A DNA stretch of 17,637 nt from Calditrichaceae bacterium (GCA_050178385.1 JBFXGD010000063.1:1-17637), one strand, 5' to 3'. Positions 1 through 17,291 are shown, numbered from the stretch's first letter. The notes: generated by a model not told the origin, from the letters alone. Numbers and translations: made by a program.

Positions 1-387
1 CGTAAAACAGTGCGGGCAATCTTTAGTTGTCGGTGCCGGCGCGGGCTTCTCATCTTCTTTTTTCTTCATGCGATTCATCTGCTTCACCACCATAAATATG
101 GCAAAGGCGATGATAAGAAAATCCAGAATGGTATTGACAAAGACCCCATAGTTAATTGTCGCTGCTCCCGCTTCCTGCGCCGCGGCAAGTGTTTCGTATC
201 CCTTGCCTGATAAATCATAAAATAAATTCGTGAAATCAACATTCCCCATCAGCATACCTATCGGCGGCATGATAACATCTTTTACAAGTGAACTGACGAT
301 TTTTCCAAAAGCCCCACCAATAATGATACCGATCGCCATATCCATTACATTTCCGCGCATGGCAAATTCTTTGAATTCTTTAAACAT
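1..387 (-). CDS. mscL: Large-conductance mechanosensitive channel MscL (3' end outside window), with the start of a C-terminal CxxC Zn-ribbon extension
   Basis: Manual translation from ATG at 387: [44 protein letters not shown]...[52 protein letters not shown]. Canonical MscL N-terminus and TM1/TM2. RBS AAAGGAG at about 394-400. Confidence 0.97.
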
Positions 388-607
388 AAAGTTCTCCTTT
401 TAATAATGTGATTGTTTAATTTTGTCTTCTGATTACCGGCAGGTCTTTTCAAATGATATGCCGGCTTTTGTTTCATGATTAACTATTTCGTGTGAAATAT
501 TGTTTATAAACACTTTATGTCAAATCATAAACGATCTGTATATTTAAAATATTTGACAAAACCGCGGCACTTCACCCGCAAATATGGTTATATCGCCCGG
601 GATTTTA

Positions 608-817
608 TTATTGATTTCGCCTTTTCTTCTTTTTTTTATGGGACGGATGTTTCACACCGTCACCCTGAAACGGACTTTTTTCTTTCCCGGAATCAGACAG
701 TAAATTGGATTGCCATCTGAACAGATGACCACAATTTTCGCAAACGACAAACATACCGATCAGCGTATCCGGACTTATCGTTAATTTTCCCGAACATTTT
801 GGACAGATAATTTTCAT
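608..817 (-). CDS. Small Zn-ribbon protein (CxxC-x17-CxxC) with basic tail, about 69 aa
   Basis: MKIICPKCSGKLTISPDTLIGMFVVCENCGHLFRW...KKKKKRRNQ resembles the MJ0042-type zinc-ribbon pattern. ATG at 817 is preceded by GGTGA. The ORF track start at 856 is probably too far upstream. Confidence 0.7.
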   Translation of the reverse strand: MKIICPKCSGKLTISPDTLIGMFVVCENCGHLFRWQSNLLSDSGKEKSPFQGDGVKHPSHKKKKKRRNQ

Positions 818-839
818 AACTTCACCATACACCGGAAGC

Positions 840-855
840 ATCAAATTACCTGCCA
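840..855 (-). promoter_or_regulatory. Candidate sigma54 -24/-12 promoter for the Zn-ribbon gene
   Basis: Minus strand TGGCAGGTAATTTGAT versus consensus TGGCACGNNNNTTGCW: correct spacing, two mismatches including the -12 C to A. Lies just downstream of a sigma54 activator gene. Confidence 0.4.
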
Positions 856-998
856 TTTTTTTCGTCCATCCCGGATTTTTATCGTAAGACTAAAAATATC
901 AATTACTTGGAAGGATATATAATTCAAAACTATGATTACACTTTTTTAAAGATACCGGGGGATATTTCCATATTGAGGGTCTTTTGGCTCGGCAGATC

Positions 999-2363
999 TC
1001 AGTCAAGATTAAATTTTTCAAGCCGGTATCGAAAGGTGTCGCGTGACAACCCTAATAATCTGGCCGCCCGGCTTTTATTCCCCCCCGCTCTTTCCAAAGC
1101 CGACAAAATGAGCTGCTTTTCCACATTTTCCAAAGAAATCCCGTCCACAGGCACCGTCCATTTCCCATCTCCTTTATCACCATCTTTGTGATGCAGTACA
1201 AGATCAGATGATTCTATTCTGCCGGTTTCAATAAATATCATTGCTCTTTCAATCACATTGCTTAATTCACGTACATTACCAGGCCATTGATAGCCTATCA
1301 ACTTCTGTTCCGCTTCTTTGCTGAATCCGGTTACATGTTTTTTGAACTCAATATTAAAAATCTGTAAAAAATGATGAGCTATCAATATGACATCACGGTC
1401 AAGCTCTCTTAAGCCGGGCAGATTTATCGTAACCACTTTCAAACGATAGAGCAAATCTTCTCTAAACTCCCCTTTACCGATCAACTCATCAAGATTCCTG
1501 TTTGTCGCTGCAATCAGACGCACCTTCACATCCTGTTCAGCATTGCTTCCGAGTCTGCGAAATTTTCGCGTTTCAAGAAATGTCAGCAGTTTTGCCTGTA
1601 ATTTCAGAGGCAGTTCACCGATTTCATCAAGGAACAGCGTTCCGCCGTCCGCTTCTTCCAGCAGTCCCTTGCGACTCGCGACAGCCCCCGTAAATGCCCC
1701 CTTCTCATATCCGAACAGCTCCGATTCCAGCAATGTCTCGGGAATAGCCGCGCAATTTATTTCAACAAAGGGCGTTTTGGATTCCTGAGACGAATAATGA
1801 ATCACCTTGGCCACAAGGCTTTTCCCCGTACCGCTCTCGCCGAGAAGCAGAACCGTGGCTGCCGGTATTTGGGAAATTTTCCCAACCATCTGTCTGATTT
1901 TTTCAATAGGTTCTGATTCACCTAAAATACTTGCCGAAAGGAAATCCCCTTTTGCCGCAAGAAAACTTTCCAGCAATAATATTTCGTTTTTTTGCTGAGC
2001 GATTTGTTGTTTCTGAATTGCCGCTTCAGTGGTATCTTCCACCAGACAGAACAAAGGAACTTCAGGATCACCCGTCCGAAAAAAAGAGAGACTAAAATAC
2101 CGCTCTTCCCCATTCGCCAAAACCCGGTTCAGGTATTCGAGAGTAAAGCTTCCTCTTTTCACCGCCAGAATTTCCCGCAGCGTGTTTTCAAGACCAACCG
2201 TTTCCGGCACCAGATCCGTGATCCGTTTTTGTCCCGGCTTCTGGTTCCCCATACAATAATCTGTAAATCCGCTGCCCGAAGAAATTACCACCATCAGATC
2301 GGATAGCCAGGCAAAGCTGAATTTTTTGTATTCAAGGATATTTTCAAAAAAGGATTTATTCAT
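999..2363 (-). CDS. Sigma54-dependent enhancer-binding transcriptional regulator (PAS-like input, AAA+, Fis-type HTH)
   Basis: Walker A GESGTGKS, intact GAFTGA, Walker B LFLDEIGE, FREDLLYRL, WPGNVREL, and C-terminal HTH GNKSRAARLLGLSRDTFRYRL. The N-terminus lacks receiver motifs and ends in PAS-like VEDTTE followed by a coiled coil. Confidence 0.95.
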   Translation of the reverse strand: MNKSFFENILEYKKFSFAWLSDLMVVISSGSGFTDYCMGNQKPGQKRITDLVPETVGLENTLREILAVKRGSFTLEYLNRVLANGEERYFSLSFFRTGDPEVPLFCLVEDTTEAAIQKQQIAQQKNEILLLESFLAAKGDFLSASILGESEPIEKIRQMVGKISQIPAATVLLLGESGTGKSLVAKVIHYSSQESKTPFVEINCAAIPETLLESELFGYEKGAFTGAVASRKGLLEEADGGTLFLDEIGELPLKLQAKLLTFLETRKFRRLGSNAEQDVKVRLIAATNRNLDELIGKGEFREDLLYRLKVVTINLPGLRELDRDVILIAHHFLQIFNIEFKKHVTGFSKEAEQKLIGYQWPGNVRELSNVIERAMIFIETGRIESSDLVLHHKDGDKGDGKWTVPVDGISLENVEKQLILSALERAGGNKSRAARLLGLSRDTFRYRLEKFNLD

Positions 2364-2898
2364 ATTTTACATTTACCAATAATTCCTGGAGCTGCCAAAA
2401 GATATTTTCCACGTTTTCTCCGGTTTTGGCGCTTGTAAGATAAAATTTGTGTTTTCCCGAGGCGGCGATTGAATCCATAAGTTCAAATGATTTTGATTTT
2501 TCTCCGGTCAGATCATTCTTGTTTCCCGCCAGTAAGATCCGCGCGTCCGGATTAATTTCCCGGAAGAATCCGGCTATTTCCGGTATCTTTTCAATCGTCT
2601 CAGGTCTGGTCAGATCGCTCACGATCAGGGCCCCCGACGCGCCCGTATAATAATTTTTCAGCGCGGGTCCGGCCTTCCCGAAACCTTCAATATCCCAGAT
2701 CACAAAATGAAATTGAACCATTCTTCCGTCAGACACGCTTACCGGCGGCAGAATTTTTTGAGATACTTTTACCCCGATGGTTGAGAGATAGCTGTCATCA
2801 AAGATATTATCGACAAACCGTCTTACCAAACTGGTTTTGCCGACTCCAAACATACCCAGCAGACAAATTTTCTTTTTAAGAATTACCGCTTCGTTCAT
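2356..2898 (-). CDS. Rab-like Ras-superfamily small GTPase (prokaryotic Rup-like)
   Basis: G1 GMFGVGKTS, G2 YLSTIG, G3 WDIEG, G4 NKND, G5 TSAK, plus Rab-like YYTGASGALIVSDLT. Stand-alone, 180 aa. Overlaps the next gene by 8 bp. Confidence 0.93.
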   Translation of the reverse strand: MNEAVILKKKICLLGMFGVGKTSLVRRFVDNIFDDSYLSTIGVKVSQKILPPVSVSDGRMVQFHFVIWDIEGFGKAGPALKNYYTGASGALIVSDLTRPETIEKIPEIAGFFREINPDARILLAGNKNDLTGEKSKSFELMDSIAASGKHKFYLTSAKTGENVENIFWQLQELLVNVKYE

Positions 2899-2923
2899 TG
2901 TTGAGATTCAACCCTTAGGTCCG

Positions 2924-4699
2924 TTATTCTATTAAGAACGTGACTCTTCTGTTTAATTCATGCATCTCAGTGCCTGTATCCGATAAAATCGGCTCTTCTG
3001 CCCCTTTTGCGATTACGGTGATCTTCGCTTCCGGAAATCCATGGTTAATCAGATATCGCCGGACATTCTCCGCCCGCTTCATTGACAGATCGTAATTAAT
3101 TTTGTCGGATCCGGATGGATCCGCGTGGCCGATGACCGTAATTCTTGTAAAATTCGCGGTTTTGAGTTTGCCTTCAATCTCGTCAAGAAGATCTATATTT
3201 TTAGCTGTAATGTTCGTTGAACCTGAATCAAAGAGGATTCTCACCGATCGGATGAAATCCGCGGACAGATCTTCCCGATTCTTTACCTTCAGATTGTTTA
3301 TGACCACAGGAAATCGTGTTATCTGTGCGGCCGCGGAACCTATTAGTATTTTATTGTTCCCGGTGGCCGTTTCACCTTCTAAAAAAAGCCGGTTGCCGTC
3401 CACGATAAACCGGATGCCGCCCAGGTCATCTTCTAACTGCCCGGGATAAAGCGCTTTCATTCCAGACCATATTTTTTCCGGCTCAATATCCCGGTTCCTG
3501 ACATTAATATCATTGGATACCTCCTTGACACCGGCCTGCTTTATCATGAGGGACTCTATTTTTTCACGGTCACTCCAGTTCTCCGCCTCACCGGCCAGCG
3601 TGACATGCCGGTCGTTTATCTCAAACCGGATATTGCTCAGAAGCTCCGGATTCTTTTGGCGAAGTTCGTTCAGGCTGGCTTTTAATTCGCTCTCCCTAAA
3701 TTTTTGCGGAATAAAGAAAATCCCCGCGTAAACAATCAGCGCCAGCAGCAGAATGGTCAACAGATACATCAATCCTTTCGGACGCCGGTTCAAATCCTTT
3801 CCGGTACCATCACTTTGCCGTTTCCGGTTGTACTGTTGAAGGAACGATTCCAGATCCGACCGGACCCGGTTAAACGGTTCTGTATCACCCTTAAATTCAC
3901 GGAGAGATTTGAAATATTGTTTATGTAAGTTCTGCTCAAGCTGACGAAGATAATCTTTTAATTCTTTCGGCGGCACGCCCGATGTTACGACCGCAAGATA
4001 GGCATTTCGTCCGTTTTCCAGCAAAATCTGAAGATCGTCATACTGAATTTCACTCAGATCCCGTTCGCTGTTTTCACTAAAGGCCGTCTTCGCGAATTCA
4101 CGGATGGCCGACAGCATACCGCTGATCATATCCTCATCGCCGGAAGCGGAGGATGACCGGTCATGGACATGTGTAAGAAGAAGGCCTGATTCTTTGTGGA
4201 TATAAAATATTTCGTGAATGGTAAATGGAAGTGAATCGGCAAGAACCAGCGCGGCGCTTTCGACTCCGGTAATCCGCGCCTTTAGTTTTTTAAACATCAT
4301 CTCAAAGCTAAGGGCCCGGTCAACGCGCTCATTTACAGTTTTAGCAAGATTCTTCATGGCCTCGGCTATGGACTTCCGGATACTCTGGCCAATCACGGGA
4401 TAAAGAGCGTCAACAATATCTTCCCTCGCGACTTCTATTTGTTTCTTGATGGCTGTTCCCATTACAGGAGCCAGCGCTTCGGCTATCTCGTCTTTTGATT
4501 CGCTTATCTTTTGGGTCAGGAGTCCGGCGATAACAGGATCAAGTGTTTTGATCAGCCAGTTTTTATCGCGCCATTGAACCTGGAACGATTCAATACGGGA
4601 TTCAAGATCGGCTACGCTTTTCAGATTATCCGCCAGTAGAATCCTTCTGAGCTGATCAACGGGATCTTCGGAAGAAGTATACTTTTTCAGCTCAGCCAT
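2924..4699 (-). CDS. Single-pass membrane protein: cytoplasmic helical repeats and longin/roadblock-like domain, TM, two BON domains, OmpA-like peptidoglycan-binding domain
   Basis: C-terminal OmpA motifs ILFDSGS...VIGHADPSGSDKINYDLSMKRAENVRRYL...NRRVTF. BON-like VTLAGEA...GVKEVSNDINV and LFLEGET...VVINNLKV. TM at aa about 309-331. Cytoplasmic IFYIHKESGLLL...DMISGMLSAIREFAK. Confidence 0.88.
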   Translation of the reverse strand: MAELKKYTSSEDPVDQLRRILLADNLKSVADLESRIESFQVQWRDKNWLIKTLDPVIAGLLTQKISESKDEIAEALAPVMGTAIKKQIEVAREDIVDALYPVIGQSIRKSIAEAMKNLAKTVNERVDRALSFEMMFKKLKARITGVESAALVLADSLPFTIHEIFYIHKESGLLLTHVHDRSSSASGDEDMISGMLSAIREFAKTAFSENSERDLSEIQYDDLQILLENGRNAYLAVVTSGVPPKELKDYLRQLEQNLHKQYFKSLREFKGDTEPFNRVRSDLESFLQQYNRKRQSDGTGKDLNRRPKGLMYLLTILLLALIVYAGIFFIPQKFRESELKASLNELRQKNPELLSNIRFEINDRHVTLAGEAENWSDREKIESLMIKQAGVKEVSNDINVRNRDIEPEKIWSGMKALYPGQLEDDLGGIRFIVDGNRLFLEGETATGNNKILIGSAAAQITRFPVVINNLKVKNREDLSADFIRSVRILFDSGSTNITAKNIDLLDEIEGKLKTANFTRITVIGHADPSGSDKINYDLSMKRAENVRRYLINHGFPEAKITVIAKGAEEPILSDTGTEMHELNRRVTFLIE

Positions 4700-5102
4700 T
4701 TTCTACCGCTTCTTCTTTAGTAATGTCATGCTCATTGCCTTTCAGCTTACGCGCGACATCCGCTAAATAAGAACTGACTTCCTCCCTGTCTGTCTTTTCA
4801 CGTCTCAGGTGTTCGATTTTTTCTTCGATAAGCGATAACTTTTCATCAACCGTCCCGAGCAGCTCCGATCCTGATTTATGGATGGACTCTCTTAACTGAG
4901 TGAATTTTTCATTGTTTTTGTTTTCGGCCTGTTGGATCATTTCATTTATTGAAGCGGTCATCTCAGAAAAATTTGTTTTCAGCTCATTCAGCTTTTTCTC
5001 CAGCTTCGAAAATTCTTCCTGAAATTCCCGAAGCTGTTCGCCGAAGATAAGATGACGCACCTGTTCAATATCGCTGGACAACTTTTTTTGATCCCCGCTC
5101 AT
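4692..5102 (-). CDS. Coiled-coil hypothetical protein, first gene of the GTPase operon
   Basis: 136 aa, heptad-rich, N-terminal IEQVRHLIFGEQ. RBS GGGGGG upstream. Overlaps the OmpA-domain gene by 8 bp (ATGGCTGA). Confidence 0.85.
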   Translation of the reverse strand: MSGDQKKLSSDIEQVRHLIFGEQLREFQEEFSKLEKKLNELKTNFSEMTASINEMIQQAENKNNEKFTQLRESIHKSGSELLGTVDEKLSLIEEKIEHLRREKTDREEVSSYLADVARKLKGNEHDITKEEAVENG

Positions 5103-8433: not shown

Positions 8434-8964
8434 ATGAAAAAGCTGTTTTCATTTATCATAGCCGCATTGTTTATTTTCCCTTGTGTCATTCATGCCCAGA
8501 CGGAATTGTCAGGGCACCTTAAACCGCTCGAACCTTTTGTGGGCAAAACCTGGAAGGGTGTATTCGCCAACCCGGATAAGGACAAAATGACTCAGGATGT
8601 CTCCCGCTGGGAGAGAGCCCTGAATGGCCAGGCAATCCGAATTCTGCATTCGGTAAATGACGGTGAATACGGCGGTGAATCGATTGTAATGTGGGATCCG
8701 GATAAGGAAAGCCTTATTTTCTATTATTTCACCACCGCCGGCTTTTTCACAAACGGCACCATAAAATTTGAAAACGGACAATTTATAAGTCATGAATACG
8801 TAACCGGTGAAAAGAGCGGAATTACAGAGGTTATGGGCGCCGGAAAAATGCTTCCCGACGGCCGCTACCTCAGCAAATCGAAGTACCTTCAAAACGGCAA
8901 ATGGGTGGAGGGGCATGAGATATATTACGTGGAGGATCCGGAAGCCAAAGTCATCATGAAATAA
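8434..8964 (+). CDS. Secreted hypothetical protein, probable beta-barrel
   Basis: Signal peptide MKKLFSFIIAALFIFPCVIHA. LKPLEPFVGKTWKG followed by alternating beta-strands. RBS GGAGAG. Confidence 0.8.
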   Translation: MKKLFSFIIAALFIFPCVIHAQTELSGHLKPLEPFVGKTWKGVFANPDKDKMTQDVSRWERALNGQAIRILHSVNDGEYGGESIVMWDPDKESLIFYYFTTAGFFTNGTIKFENGQFISHEYVTGEKSGITEVMGAGKMLPDGRYLSKSKYLQNGKWVEGHEIYYVEDPEAKVIMK

Positions 8965-12506: not shown

Positions 12507-12932
12507 TTATTTTACTCTGTAGTAAGTCACCGTTTCTTCACCAAAAAATGACGGCCGGTGAATTGGCTGATCCTTATTTATCTCTCCCGGTTCCACATCA
12601 AGACGGAACATGGCGTTGTTTTTATGTTCAATGATTCCATAGAGGGCTTTCCCCGCGAGCGGACCTTCATTAAATCCGCTTAAATCTATCGTGACCGGAC
12701 AAGTATCGAAATCAATTTTATATTCTATTTCAAATGTTTGTGTCATGTTTTTCGATTTTAATTTCCATTCCGCCCGGTTATCTTCCATAAAAACAAAGGT
12801 CTGTTTTATCCCCATTTTATCTACCCCGGACCACTCTCCGATTAAATACCCTCTGTTTTCTTTCCGGCAACCAGCGAAAATTATCAACAGCAGAATCAAT
12901 ATTCCGGATATGAATACATTTTTGTTTGTCAT
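12507..12932 (-). CDS. Hypothetical lipoprotein, lipocalin-like/TIGR03067-like beta domain
   Basis: Lipobox FAGC. LIGEW...YKIDFDTCPVTIDL...GKALYGI...RPSFF resembles the TIGR03067-type pattern. RBS GGTGGGG. Confidence 0.75.
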   Translation of the reverse strand: MTNKNVFISGILILLLIIFAGCRKENRGYLIGEWSGVDKMGIKQTFVFMEDNRAEWKLKSKNMTQTFEIEYKIDFDTCPVTIDLSGFNEGPLAGKALYGIIEHKNNAMFRLDVEPGEINKDQPIHRPSFFGEETVTYYRVK

Positions 12933-13159
12933 CAATTATCCCCACCCTATTAAATTTATGCTAAATCAAAATACAATTCATAGAATTTAAATCAAAGAAA
13001 AAATCCTGATATTATATTCCCGGCGCTAACGGGACTTTTCTGTCAAACTGCCTCTTAATTTTCCTGACACCTTTTGTCAGCACAAATATATTTTTATTTT
13101 CTTAAACCAAATCGTATTCTTTACGTATCTATATGCGGTTACTAACTTATGGGGATAAG

Positions 13160-15437: not shown

Positions 15438-15552
15438 TTTACCTAACCCGGATTAGATGGCCCTACACCTTCGTTGAAACTCAATAGATTATGGCGGCCA
15501 AAGAGTATAAATTTCAATTTTGAGTAAACTTAATATTCATACGGGGGAAATC

Positions 15553-15939
15553 ATGAACAAAGATTCCAATGCAGAGCAAATATGGGATGAAGAAATAAGA
15601 CAAAAATTTATAAAAGAAGCCCGGGATGAGCAAAACCGGTATTCTCTTTATTATAAAACGCGTTTCTGGTCGATGATGATCGCTCAGGGCACAGGAGCGA
15701 TGCTGGTAATCGCAGGGGCGGTACTGTCACTGCTGGGTTTCAGCGGAACGATTGAATGGCTGGAGCATGCTCACAACAATATGGAGCGGTTTTATAACGC
15801 CGGCCCCGGTTTCACCTTTATTATTCTCGGTATCCTTACCTTATGGCTCTCCAGACCACGCCCCCATCACGAACCTCATGCTCCCGAAGGCCGCCACCGT
15901 ACAGGAAAACTTTTTGATGTGGATGATTTGCTGGAGTAG
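15553..15939 (+). CDS. Hypothetical membrane protein with two TM helices
   Basis: Hydrophobic segments GAMLVIAGAVLSLLG and GPGFTFIILGILTLW. ATG 15553 follows GGGGGA. Confidence 0.75.
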   Translation: MNKDSNAEQIWDEEIRQKFIKEARDEQNRYSLYYKTRFWSMMIAQGTGAMLVIAGAVLSLLGFSGTIEWLEHAHNNMERFYNAGPGFTFIILGILTLWLSRPRPHHEPHAPEGRHRTGKLFDVDDLLE

Positions 15940-16500: not shown

Positions 16501-17250
16501 TTAACCTTCCACCGGCACCGATTCCTGGTCTGATTTCCGATTTTTATTATAGCGTTTTGCATATTGACTCACATATCCCTTAAAACGCTGATCGTCCCGC
16601 CAGAAAACATACTGACCGCATTCACGGATATCGTCCATGGCTTCTTTTAAATATGTATAAGCCTTATCGCGTGTCACCCGGGTTTCGTTATTGTCCACGC
16701 GATCTGTGGCCGCCAGGGATAGAAGCTCCGCCATTTCATCGGATGTGGCTGCCGCCGTATCCAGCAGGGTTAAATCAAAACTGATTTTGGTTAGCGGCTC
16801 GCTGTTGGCTTTGCCCAGTTCAGCAAGGTCATTTAAATCCTGGATCATATCGGCATGACTGTTGCCCTCGGCAATCTTACTCACACGGCTAGCCAGCTCC
16901 GGTAGTTTACGATAGGCGAAGTGAAAATCATGAAGAAGCTGGTCACGAAGATCGTAGGCAGCGGGTGATTTTTCTTGCCAAAGTCTTTCCGCTTCTTCCC
17001 GGTTAAAACGATCCGTAAACCACAGGGATTCAGCCTGACGAGTTGCCCCGGTGCGGGTGGGGAGATCTTCAACCAGAGTCCAGTCCAGACCGGCCGCGAT
17101 GAGTTTTTCCTTATCAGCCTGACACCATTGATACGTGTTTTCCGCCTCCTGCAAATAGACATCCATGGGCATGTTTGGAGATTTGGTGACTTCATCGGGA
17201 ATCGCTTCGATTTCCGTCTGTTTTGCCGCAAAATCACTGGCATTTGACAT
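16501..17250 (-). CDS. Uncharacterised acidic, predicted all-helical protein (249 aa)
   Basis: Long ORF with RBS GGAGGAA before ATG 17250 (MSNASDF...) and its own terminator. No recognisable catalytic motif. Basic C-terminal patch YAKRYNKNRK. Confidence 0.88.
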   Translation of the reverse strand: MSNASDFAAKQTEIEAIPDEVTKSPNMPMDVYLQEAENTYQWCQADKEKLIAAGLDWTLVEDLPTRTGATRQAESLWFTDRFNREEAERLWQEKSPAAYDLRDQLLHDFHFAYRKLPELASRVSKIAEGNSHADMIQDLNDLAELGKANSEPLTKISFDLTLLDTAAATSDEMAELLSLAATDRVDNNETRVTRDKAYTYLKEAMDDIRECGQYVFWRDDQRFKGYVSQYAKRYNKNRKSDQESVPVEG

Positions 17251-17291
17251 AACAATTTCCTCCAATTTCGTTAATGGTTTGTTTTGTAAAG

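Follow-up and report, generated by a model that had tools for sequence, protein, structure and literature searches.

The window analyzed here, a stretch of 17,637 nt from a Calditrichaceae bacterium (GCA_050178385.1 JBFXGD010000063.1:1-17637), contains at positions 999 to 5102 a four-gene locus that almost certainly represents a Group 1 Rup system, built around a Rab-like GTPase and ending in an activator of sigma54-dependent transcription. The four-gene architecture has been known since 2014; the sigma54 output, the predicted longin domain of the DUFX protein, the PAS-helix input, and the likely regulon were not found in print. We lean, at somewhat better than even chances, toward a chain in which a longin exchange factor acts on the Rab-like GTPase, the GTPase on a helix behind the PAS core of the activator, and the activator on sigma54-dependent transcription of neighboring envelope genes. 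A GTPase relay to a sigma54 activator, as put forward in a first-pass annotation of the sequence, is plausible.

Organization of the locus

Four minus-strand open reading frames (ORFs; 5102-4692, 4699-2924, 2898-2356, and 2363-999) encode proteins of 136, 591, 180, and 454 aa. As the first-pass annotation had described, they are co-oriented with two 8-bp overlaps (4692-4699 and 2356-2363) and a single 25-bp gap (2899-2923). Each of the four genes is present as a single copy in the source genome, in which rpoN was found as well. The features are as follows.

4692..5102, minus strand: DUFY-type cytoplasmic coiled-coil protein, 136 aa, with conserved N-terminal (I/V)R.LIFG and C-terminal K.DR..L
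2924..4699, minus strand: DUFX:OmpA, 591 aa, with N-terminal helical repeats, longin, one transmembrane (TM) helix, BON, BON-like, and OmpA-like domains
3803..4222, minus strand: predicted longin domain, residues 160-299, with a1 G194-MLS-A198 and b1-b2 loop K169-E-S-G172-L, without GP motif and without conserved Arg finger
3710..3766, minus strand: single TM helix, residues about 312-330 (Kyte-Doolittle 2.66 and AF2 model)
2930..3694, minus strand: periplasmic BON, BON-like, and OmpA-like peptidoglycan-binding domains (Pfam, AF2 model, structural search)
2356..2898, minus strand: Group 1 Rup Rab-like GTPase, 180 aa, with G1 GMFGVGKT, G2 YLSTIGV, G3 DIEGF, G4 NKND, and G5 SAK, without C-terminal Cys motif
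999..2363, minus strand: sigma54 enhancer-binding protein, 454 aa, with PAS and helix input, AAA+ domain with GAFTGA, Fis-type helix-turn-helix (HTH), and recognition helix SRDTFRYRL
1935..2363, minus strand: Rup-associated input module, activator residues 1-143, with PAS core containing P-E-x-x-G-x-E, then helix with exposed Q119/Q123/N126/E127/L130

Group 1 Rup neighborhoods were defined as consisting of a coiled-coil protein, a DUF protein often with TM helix and OmpA domain, a GTPase without the G3 Gln, and an output protein (PMC4316618, Wuichet and Søgaard-Andersen, Genome Biol Evol). According to this paper the outputs are typically diguanylate cyclases/phosphodiesterases or kinases, whose invariant N-terminal Gln was proposed as a residue of a GTPase-activating protein (GAP). 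Its table holds 27 members with the order DUFY, DUFX(:OmpA), Rup, none of them from the Calditrichota; Group 1 is described as the bacterial proteins closest to Rab/Ras, and no member had been characterized experimentally in 2014. The locus described here resembles these systems in gene order, in the Gln-less G3 motif, and in an output N-terminal region with a near-invariant Gln, the OmpA domain being optional in both. It differs in its output, a sigma54 activator not being among the typical ones, and is regarded as a variant, since the 2014 text says "typically". The terms "sigma" and "PAS" are absent from the main text of PMC4316618 and "sigma54" from its searched supplement; the paper gave neither a fold for DUFX nor a regulon. 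No later Rup study was found in a literature search from whose reach subscription papers were largely excluded.

Conservation and variety of outputs

Rup matches were obtained in 31 of 86 genomes of the phylum. The longin profile matched 32 of the 86 and the input module was strongly matched in 33 and weakly in 4 more, which is nearly the same set as for Rup; contig ends interrupt the systems of G022 and G083, the latter retaining a fragment of Rup. In all 30 other Calditrichota genomes with a match, the best Rup match is followed by a sigma54 activator, and 28 of them show the full four-gene order, the remaining 2 being cut by contig ends. The arrangement is therefore not a product of chance, and the co-occurrence on which the first-pass annotation had staked its proposal is borne out. 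Three secondary Rup matches in the phylum are without sigma54 output.

Among the best 80 of 580 metagenome loci, 67 ORFs with the input module were identified, 15 of which contain a sigma54 AAA domain. The other outputs that were scanned (42 of 43, that of locus L124 dropped) comprise 23 kinases, 5 GGDEF proteins, 3 nucleotide cyclases, 1 HD protein, 1 winged helix protein, 4 proteins with only more PAS/GAF domains, and 5 without match. The input module is thus constant while the output varies, as anticipated in the first-pass annotation; its idea of a G-protein relay in place of a phosphorelay holds for the source locus only, since elsewhere histidine kinases are the commonest other output. 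Rup systems from a plasmid collection, in Mesorhizobium with a cyclase and in Nostoc with a kinase output, match the profiles as well. Single-sequence searches were narrow (4 loci in genome contigs and, for the PAS module, 2 proteins); the breadth comes from the profiles.

In the metagenome loci L070, L072, L073, L074, L078, L088, and L120, DUFY-DUFX is divergent from Rup(-activator), and where the activator is complete, the promoter behind it is mostly retained. L065 (G067:C21) carries a second DUFY-DUFX-Rup set near an LRR-Roc-COR gene, with no input module detected. An apparent Rup-PAS fusion at L124 spans an ambiguous base and is an artifact.

The Rup GTPase

The 180-aa protein matches Pfam Ras with an E value of 1e-26, and its best solved relatives are Rab22A and Rab1. 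Its length, within the range of 150-240 aa, and its eukaryote-like G1-G5 motifs are those of a stand-alone GTPase of the Ras superfamily, and together with the Group 1 features they confirm the first-pass identification as a Rup-type GTPase. Two marks of eukaryotic Rab proteins are missing: the C-terminus LVNVKYE has no prenylation cysteines, and the G3 motif DIEGF is without the catalytic Gln, which is likewise missing in 81 and present in 3 of 84 homologues. No homologue departs from W68 or Y83 (84/84), and both are taken by us to be residues of the Rab hydrophobic triad. It is around this triad that Rab partners bind (PMC5902227). At the position of Ras A59, a Glu (E71) is present in 46 of the 84 homologues. 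In Ras, A59E alters exchange and hydrolysis.

The sigma54 activator and its PAS-helix input

The 454-aa protein matches Sigma54_activat and HTH_8 of Pfam and shows GAFTGA, Walker A/B motifs, and a Fis-type HTH, with no receiver domain. Exact GAFTGA is found in only 3 of 42 Rup-linked activator homologues, most of which have GAFT(H/N)A. The N-terminus has no Pfam match of its own; PAS_4 is matched by 31 of 84 homologous modules, and the model of the module matches PAS/LOV domains, as expected for a PAS fold. The first-pass description of a bacterial enhancer-binding protein (bEBP) with intact GAFTGA and a non-receiver PAS-like input was thus correct.

With PAS-controlled sigma54 activators (PrpR, TyrR-like, AtoC, and ZraR cores) the protein shares the AAA+ domain, the GAFTGA loop, and the Fis HTH. 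It matches the NCBIfam models of these four without reaching an equivalog cut-off, and differs from them in its own clade, input module, and recognition helix. In a tree that includes 20 paralogues of the source genome, the 42 tips of the Rup-linked activators group together with a support of 0.745. The recognition helix of the Rup-linked proteins, which ends with RYR in 36 of 42 cases, differs from that of 13 parsable paralogues.

A long helix follows the PAS core of the input module, in which E54 is invariant and Q123 is present in 82 of 84 modules. By heptad analysis, the outer face of the helix comprises Q119, Q123, N126, E127, and L130, and this stripe is predicted to be exposed. The helix is the most conserved surface of the module, and the Mesorhizobium output matches that helix only. 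Binding of Rup to the input module is probable, and we infer that the helix is a site of the Rab-effector type.

The main rival is the 2014 proposal, in which the invariant Gln of the output, presumably Q123, completes the active site of Rup in trans. The module would then be a GAP, or GAP and effector in one, and hydrolysis would be the switch. This agrees with a Gln missing on the Rup side and nearly always present on that of the module, it has been proposed in print for these very proteins (PMC4316618), and TBC GAPs indeed supply a Gln in trans (PMC5902227). Q123, however, sits in the middle of the long helix of the model, where it shares a stripe with Q119, N126, E127, and L130; to us this arrangement resembles an effector surface more than it does a finger loop. 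Moreover, the module has no invariant Arg (the best is R80, 72/84). We consider the proposal unlikely, even if it is the strongest of the alternatives.

DUFY and DUFX

For the 136-aa DUFY protein, weak coiled-coil-type matches only were obtained. In the 591-aa DUFX, Pfam identifies BON (336-402) and OmpA (489-584) domains, and a second BON-like unit (407-472) is visible in the AF2 model only. Of the BON-BON-OmpA part placed outside the membrane by the first-pass annotation, BON and OmpA are supported by Pfam, the second BON by the model. Some other DUFX proteins carry an SH3 domain in place of OmpA.

In the AF2 model of DUFX (pLDDT 83.9), residues 160-299 are ordered bb-a-bbb-aa, which is the longin topology as defined in PMC3747258, rather than the roadblock/MglB order (a-bb-a-bbb-a); two helices follow b5, as in longins. 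Of the "longin/roadblock-like" domain in the first-pass annotation, the model favors the longin half. A structural search with this region returned Sec22 (Z 13.6, rmsd 2.6, 126 residues aligned), VAMP7 (Z 13.2), CPLANE (11.9), a Lokiarchaeal longin (11.8), and a Mon1-Ccz1 chain (10.9), and many other longins match at Z 10-13. No roadblock entry is among the 50 structural matches listed, where a weaker match may follow. Foldseek with the whole DUFX model gave OmpA/BON matches only.

The most conserved element of the longin region is helix a1, GM(L)TA: among 75 sequences, position 194 is G in 63 and S in 11, and A198 is present in all. Exchange by Mon1-Ccz1 requires the a1 pairs G250/T254 (Mon1) and G106/G110 (Ccz1) as well as the G232/K233 site (PMC5216073). 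G194/A198 of DUFX resemble these small-residue pairs. The test for longins of the GAP type (FLCN/NPRL2/SMCR8) was negative: GP is missing before b2 (G172-L173), and in the loop where we presume an Arg finger to be expected, R231 is found in 27 of 75 sequences. GAP-type longins are characterized by a GP motif and an Arg finger (PMC12290439). Due to the likeness of a1 and the missing GAP motifs, a role as guanine nucleotide exchange factor (GEF) is preferred over that of a GAP. The domain is thus modeled as a true longin with motifs of the GEF rather than the GAP type, and judging from motif likeness it probably, if with clear reservations, acts as GEF for Rup.

With Mon1-Ccz1 and the Bet5/Trs23 longins of TRAPP (PMC5216073), DUFX shares the longin topology, the small-residue pair in a1, and a Rab-like partner. 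Unlike these, it is bacterial, is encoded by a single longin gene, which suggests a homodimer, is fused to TM-BON-OmpA, and has a predicted activity. MglA/MglB and the actinobacterial conservon (PMC4316618, PMC3747258) likewise combine a small GTPase with a partner of the roadblock/longin class and with signaling proteins; here, in contrast, the GTPase is Rab-like, the partner has longin and not roadblock order, and the output is transcriptional.

Sequestration or localization is a further alternative, in which the activator is kept on a membrane-bound or polar scaffold of DUFX and DUFY, Rup does no more than determine whether and where this complex forms, and the longin is a docking platform instead of a GEF. 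Many longins have no GEF role, the best structural matches of DUFX are SNARE/adaptor longins, its helical repeats at 45-145 are long and highly conserved, and MglA/MglB function in polarity (PMC4316618). On the other hand, purely cytoplasmic DUFX forms retain the sigma54 output, and conservation of the longin surface peaks on helix a1, with which Mon1-Ccz1 and TRAPP bind their GTPases, so that we rate this alternative as improbable.

Residues 45-145 contain three helical repeats of ~22 residues (L.PV...I...I) with an invariant P101, which are expanded in long homologues of the cyanobacterial type. The longin profile matches 6,689 clusters at E values up to 0.001, including non-Rup proteins. 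Large CARDB/DUF5915 proteins (P0235-P0237, P0242, P0244, P0248, P0365) contain 2-3 copies of the DUFX-type longin, P0238, P0243, and P0249 contain tandem longins, and Atlas neighbors of the domain are mostly archaeal with scores <0.9. No fusion to Rup or PAS was found among 132 further longin proteins.

Predicted promoters, enhancers and regulon

Candidate regulatory units and likely target genes, which the first-pass annotation had overlooked, are located at window positions 989-1, just outside 999..5102.

958..989, minus strand: unit 1, tandem enhancer-like sites (989-978 and 969-958, spacing 20), score 20.4, in the background range
840..855, minus strand: sigma54 -24/-12 promoter-like site TGGCA-N6-TTG ahead of the zinc-ribbon gene (motif match)
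608..817, minus strand: zinc-ribbon protein, 69 aa from ATG 817, likely target gene; a longer call from 856 overlaps the promoter
565..597, minus strand: unit 2, tandem enhancer-like palindromes (597-586 and 576-565, spacing 21), score 37.8, rank 2 of 12 in the genome
448..463, minus strand: sigma54 -24/-12 promoter-like site ahead of mscL (motif match)
1..387, minus strand: mscL, cut by the contig end, likely target gene; on contig C244, beyond base 1, a third unit lies ahead of DUF4332, BON-LysM, and DUF2780, likewise likely targets

In case of the zinc-ribbon gene, the ORF-caller start at 856 (window 608-856) overlaps the promoter-like site; homologues start at a Met equivalent to 817.

Among 104 selected neighbors scanned, zinc-ribbon genes accompany 9 of 45 sigma54-type loci versus 0 of 68 others, and MscL or MscS genes 9 of 45 versus 3 of 68; DUF4332, BON-LysM, DUF937, and barrel OmpA genes also recur next to the sigma54 type. 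TGGCA-N6-TTG occurs within 400 nt past the activator stop in 24 of 41 loci, with 0 on the reverse strand, a shuffle mean of 0.33, and 0 of 24 for other outputs. The strict sigma54 consensus gave 11 window matches with 2 mismatches versus 12.1 expected. In the general architecture of bEBP systems, tandem enhancer sites lie ~100 bp upstream of a -24/-12 promoter. Upstream of the promoter pattern, tandem GGnSAWWTSnCC palindromes spaced 19-23 or 29-32 nt were observed in 12 of 24 training loci, 6 of 17 held-out loci, and 2 of 24 loci with other outputs (shuffle means 0.4-0.6, held-out shuffle 0.38). Palindromes and promoter together occur in 10 training loci, 3 held-out loci, and 0 loci with other outputs, and in 0 shuffles.

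With unit-scoring matrices trained without the source genome and its closest relative, 12 units were found in the 3.9 Mb genome. The unit of DUF4332-BON/LysM-DUF2780 ranks first (43.9) and that of mscL second (37.8), followed by the next at 21.7. The top unit (G000:C244 485-1925) lies ahead of the DUF4332, BON-LysM, and DUF2780 genes on contig C244, which continues the window beyond base 1. Such a unit precedes DUF4332 in 14 of 22 loci of Rup-positive genomes, 10 of 15 where DUF4332 is distant from the activator, and in 1 of 3 of Rup-negative genomes (1 of 23 loci, without upstream DNA, was dropped). DUF4332 itself is present in 20 of 31 Rup-positive versus 3 of 31 Rup-negative genomes. No promoter/enhancer unit was found upstream of DUFY, and hence there is no sign of autoregulation. 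That the neighboring envelope genes constitute the regulon of the activator is quite probable, and the zinc-ribbon gene, mscL, and DUF4332-BON/LysM-DUF2780 are its likely targets.

Proposed mechanism and points against it

A DUFX longin homodimer on a peptidoglycan-tethered protein, with DUFY as scaffold, would load GTP onto Rup as Mon1-Ccz1 and TRAPP do. Two Rup-GTP would dock onto the dimeric post-PAS helix as Rabs do onto the coiled coils of their effectors, and the AAA+ domain would thereby be freed. The HTH would bind pairs of GGnSAWWTSnCC ~70-175 bp upstream and the activator open the promoters of zinc-ribbon, mscL, and DUF4332-BON/LysM-DUF2780. It is tempting to speculate that the signal is the mechanical or osmotic state of the envelope, for which the chances are a little below even. 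The most far-reaching version, a complete eukaryote-style G-protein pathway in bacteria with a wall-tethered longin-homodimer GEF, a Rab-like GTPase, a portable PAS-helix effector, and a sigma54-dependent envelope/mechanosensitive regulon addressed via GGnSAWWTSnCC, is conceivable and rather doubtful as a whole.

Several points weigh against the proposed chain. All protein contacts in it are ones that we infer. Sequence evidence for the longin is weak (Bet5 E 0.38; Intu_longin_1 in 4 of 75 rows with E 0.014 or worse), and the fold assignment therefore rests on the AF2 model. In 13 of 28 sigma54-type Calditrichota relatives, DUFX ends at most 20 residues past the longin and thus lacks TM helix and OmpA, so that a signal from the cell wall cannot be general; the cell-wall-anchored receptor proposed in the first-pass annotation is not a requirement of the system. 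Behind the activator of 6 of these 13 short-DUFX loci a separate signal-anchored BON-OmpA gene is located, in three with a promoter unit in front. The genomes are related and their counts overstate independence, and the clade of the Rup-linked activators has a support of 0.745. Strict TTGC had matched 1 of 42 downstream regions, whereupon the -12 C was no longer required in the promoter pattern, and the palindrome was picked by eye. The control of expectation-maximization (EM) motif finding, from whose training 4 near-duplicate loci were left out, was not clean, with 1 of 8 shuffles equaling the real score; EM was replaced by the pattern and held-out tests. The score of the zinc-ribbon unit (20.4) is within the background range, and a unit precedes mscL in only 2 of 20 other Rup-positive genomes (0 of 12 Rup-negative). 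Finally, 24 further sigma54 activator AAA domains in the genome could serve the predicted promoters, and in G045, which is Rup-negative at 95% completeness, DUF4332 is preceded by a strong unit.

These last two points, together with the bona fide PAS fold of the input, favor a control of the activator by a small ligand of the PAS domain itself, with Rup, DUFX, and DUFY parallel or downstream and another activator at the promoter units, but the module constitutes a family of its own whose occurrence in the phylum follows that of Rup, and it adjoins Rup across at least 6 output types, and units are absent behind 24 of 24 non-sigma54 outputs, which leaves this the least probable of the alternatives.

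In G045 an alignment search found no Rup-like gene, and no matching recognition helix was seen in the 1 parsable of 4 fetched activators. Its unit (L188, G045:C118) may reflect an assembly gap, a relic, or another activator.

Remaining features of the window

The remaining genes encode peptidases M3, M1, and S9, a methyltransferase, a DUF1684 protein, and a SpoIIE phosphatase. ORFs without Pfam match are situated at 16501-17265 (minus strand), 15520-15939 (plus strand), 12507-12935 (minus strand), and 8434-8964 (plus strand). No Rfam match was found in the window, and a sigma70/terminator scan gave a result near chance.

Implications

According to the 2014 paper, Rup proteins are without an MglB-like partner (PMC4316618), and longins were said to be absent from prokaryotes in PMC3747258, Asgard longins having been described later (PMC10933270, bioRxiv 2020.10.19.343400). 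A longin partner of Rup, if true, would overturn both the lack of an MglB-like Rup partner and the restriction of longins to eukaryotes and Asgard archaea. It would represent a bacterial counterpart of the longin-Rab pairing in TRAPP and Mon1-Ccz1, and transcription would provide a read-out that is already in place. The locus is a known, uncharacterized system in a variant that was not found in print, and its predicted longin, proposed effector helix, and predicted regulon make the system directly testable. In particular, the predicted promoters and enhancer sites of the sigma54 variant make Rup function and control accessible to reporter assays, with named residues and DNA sites.

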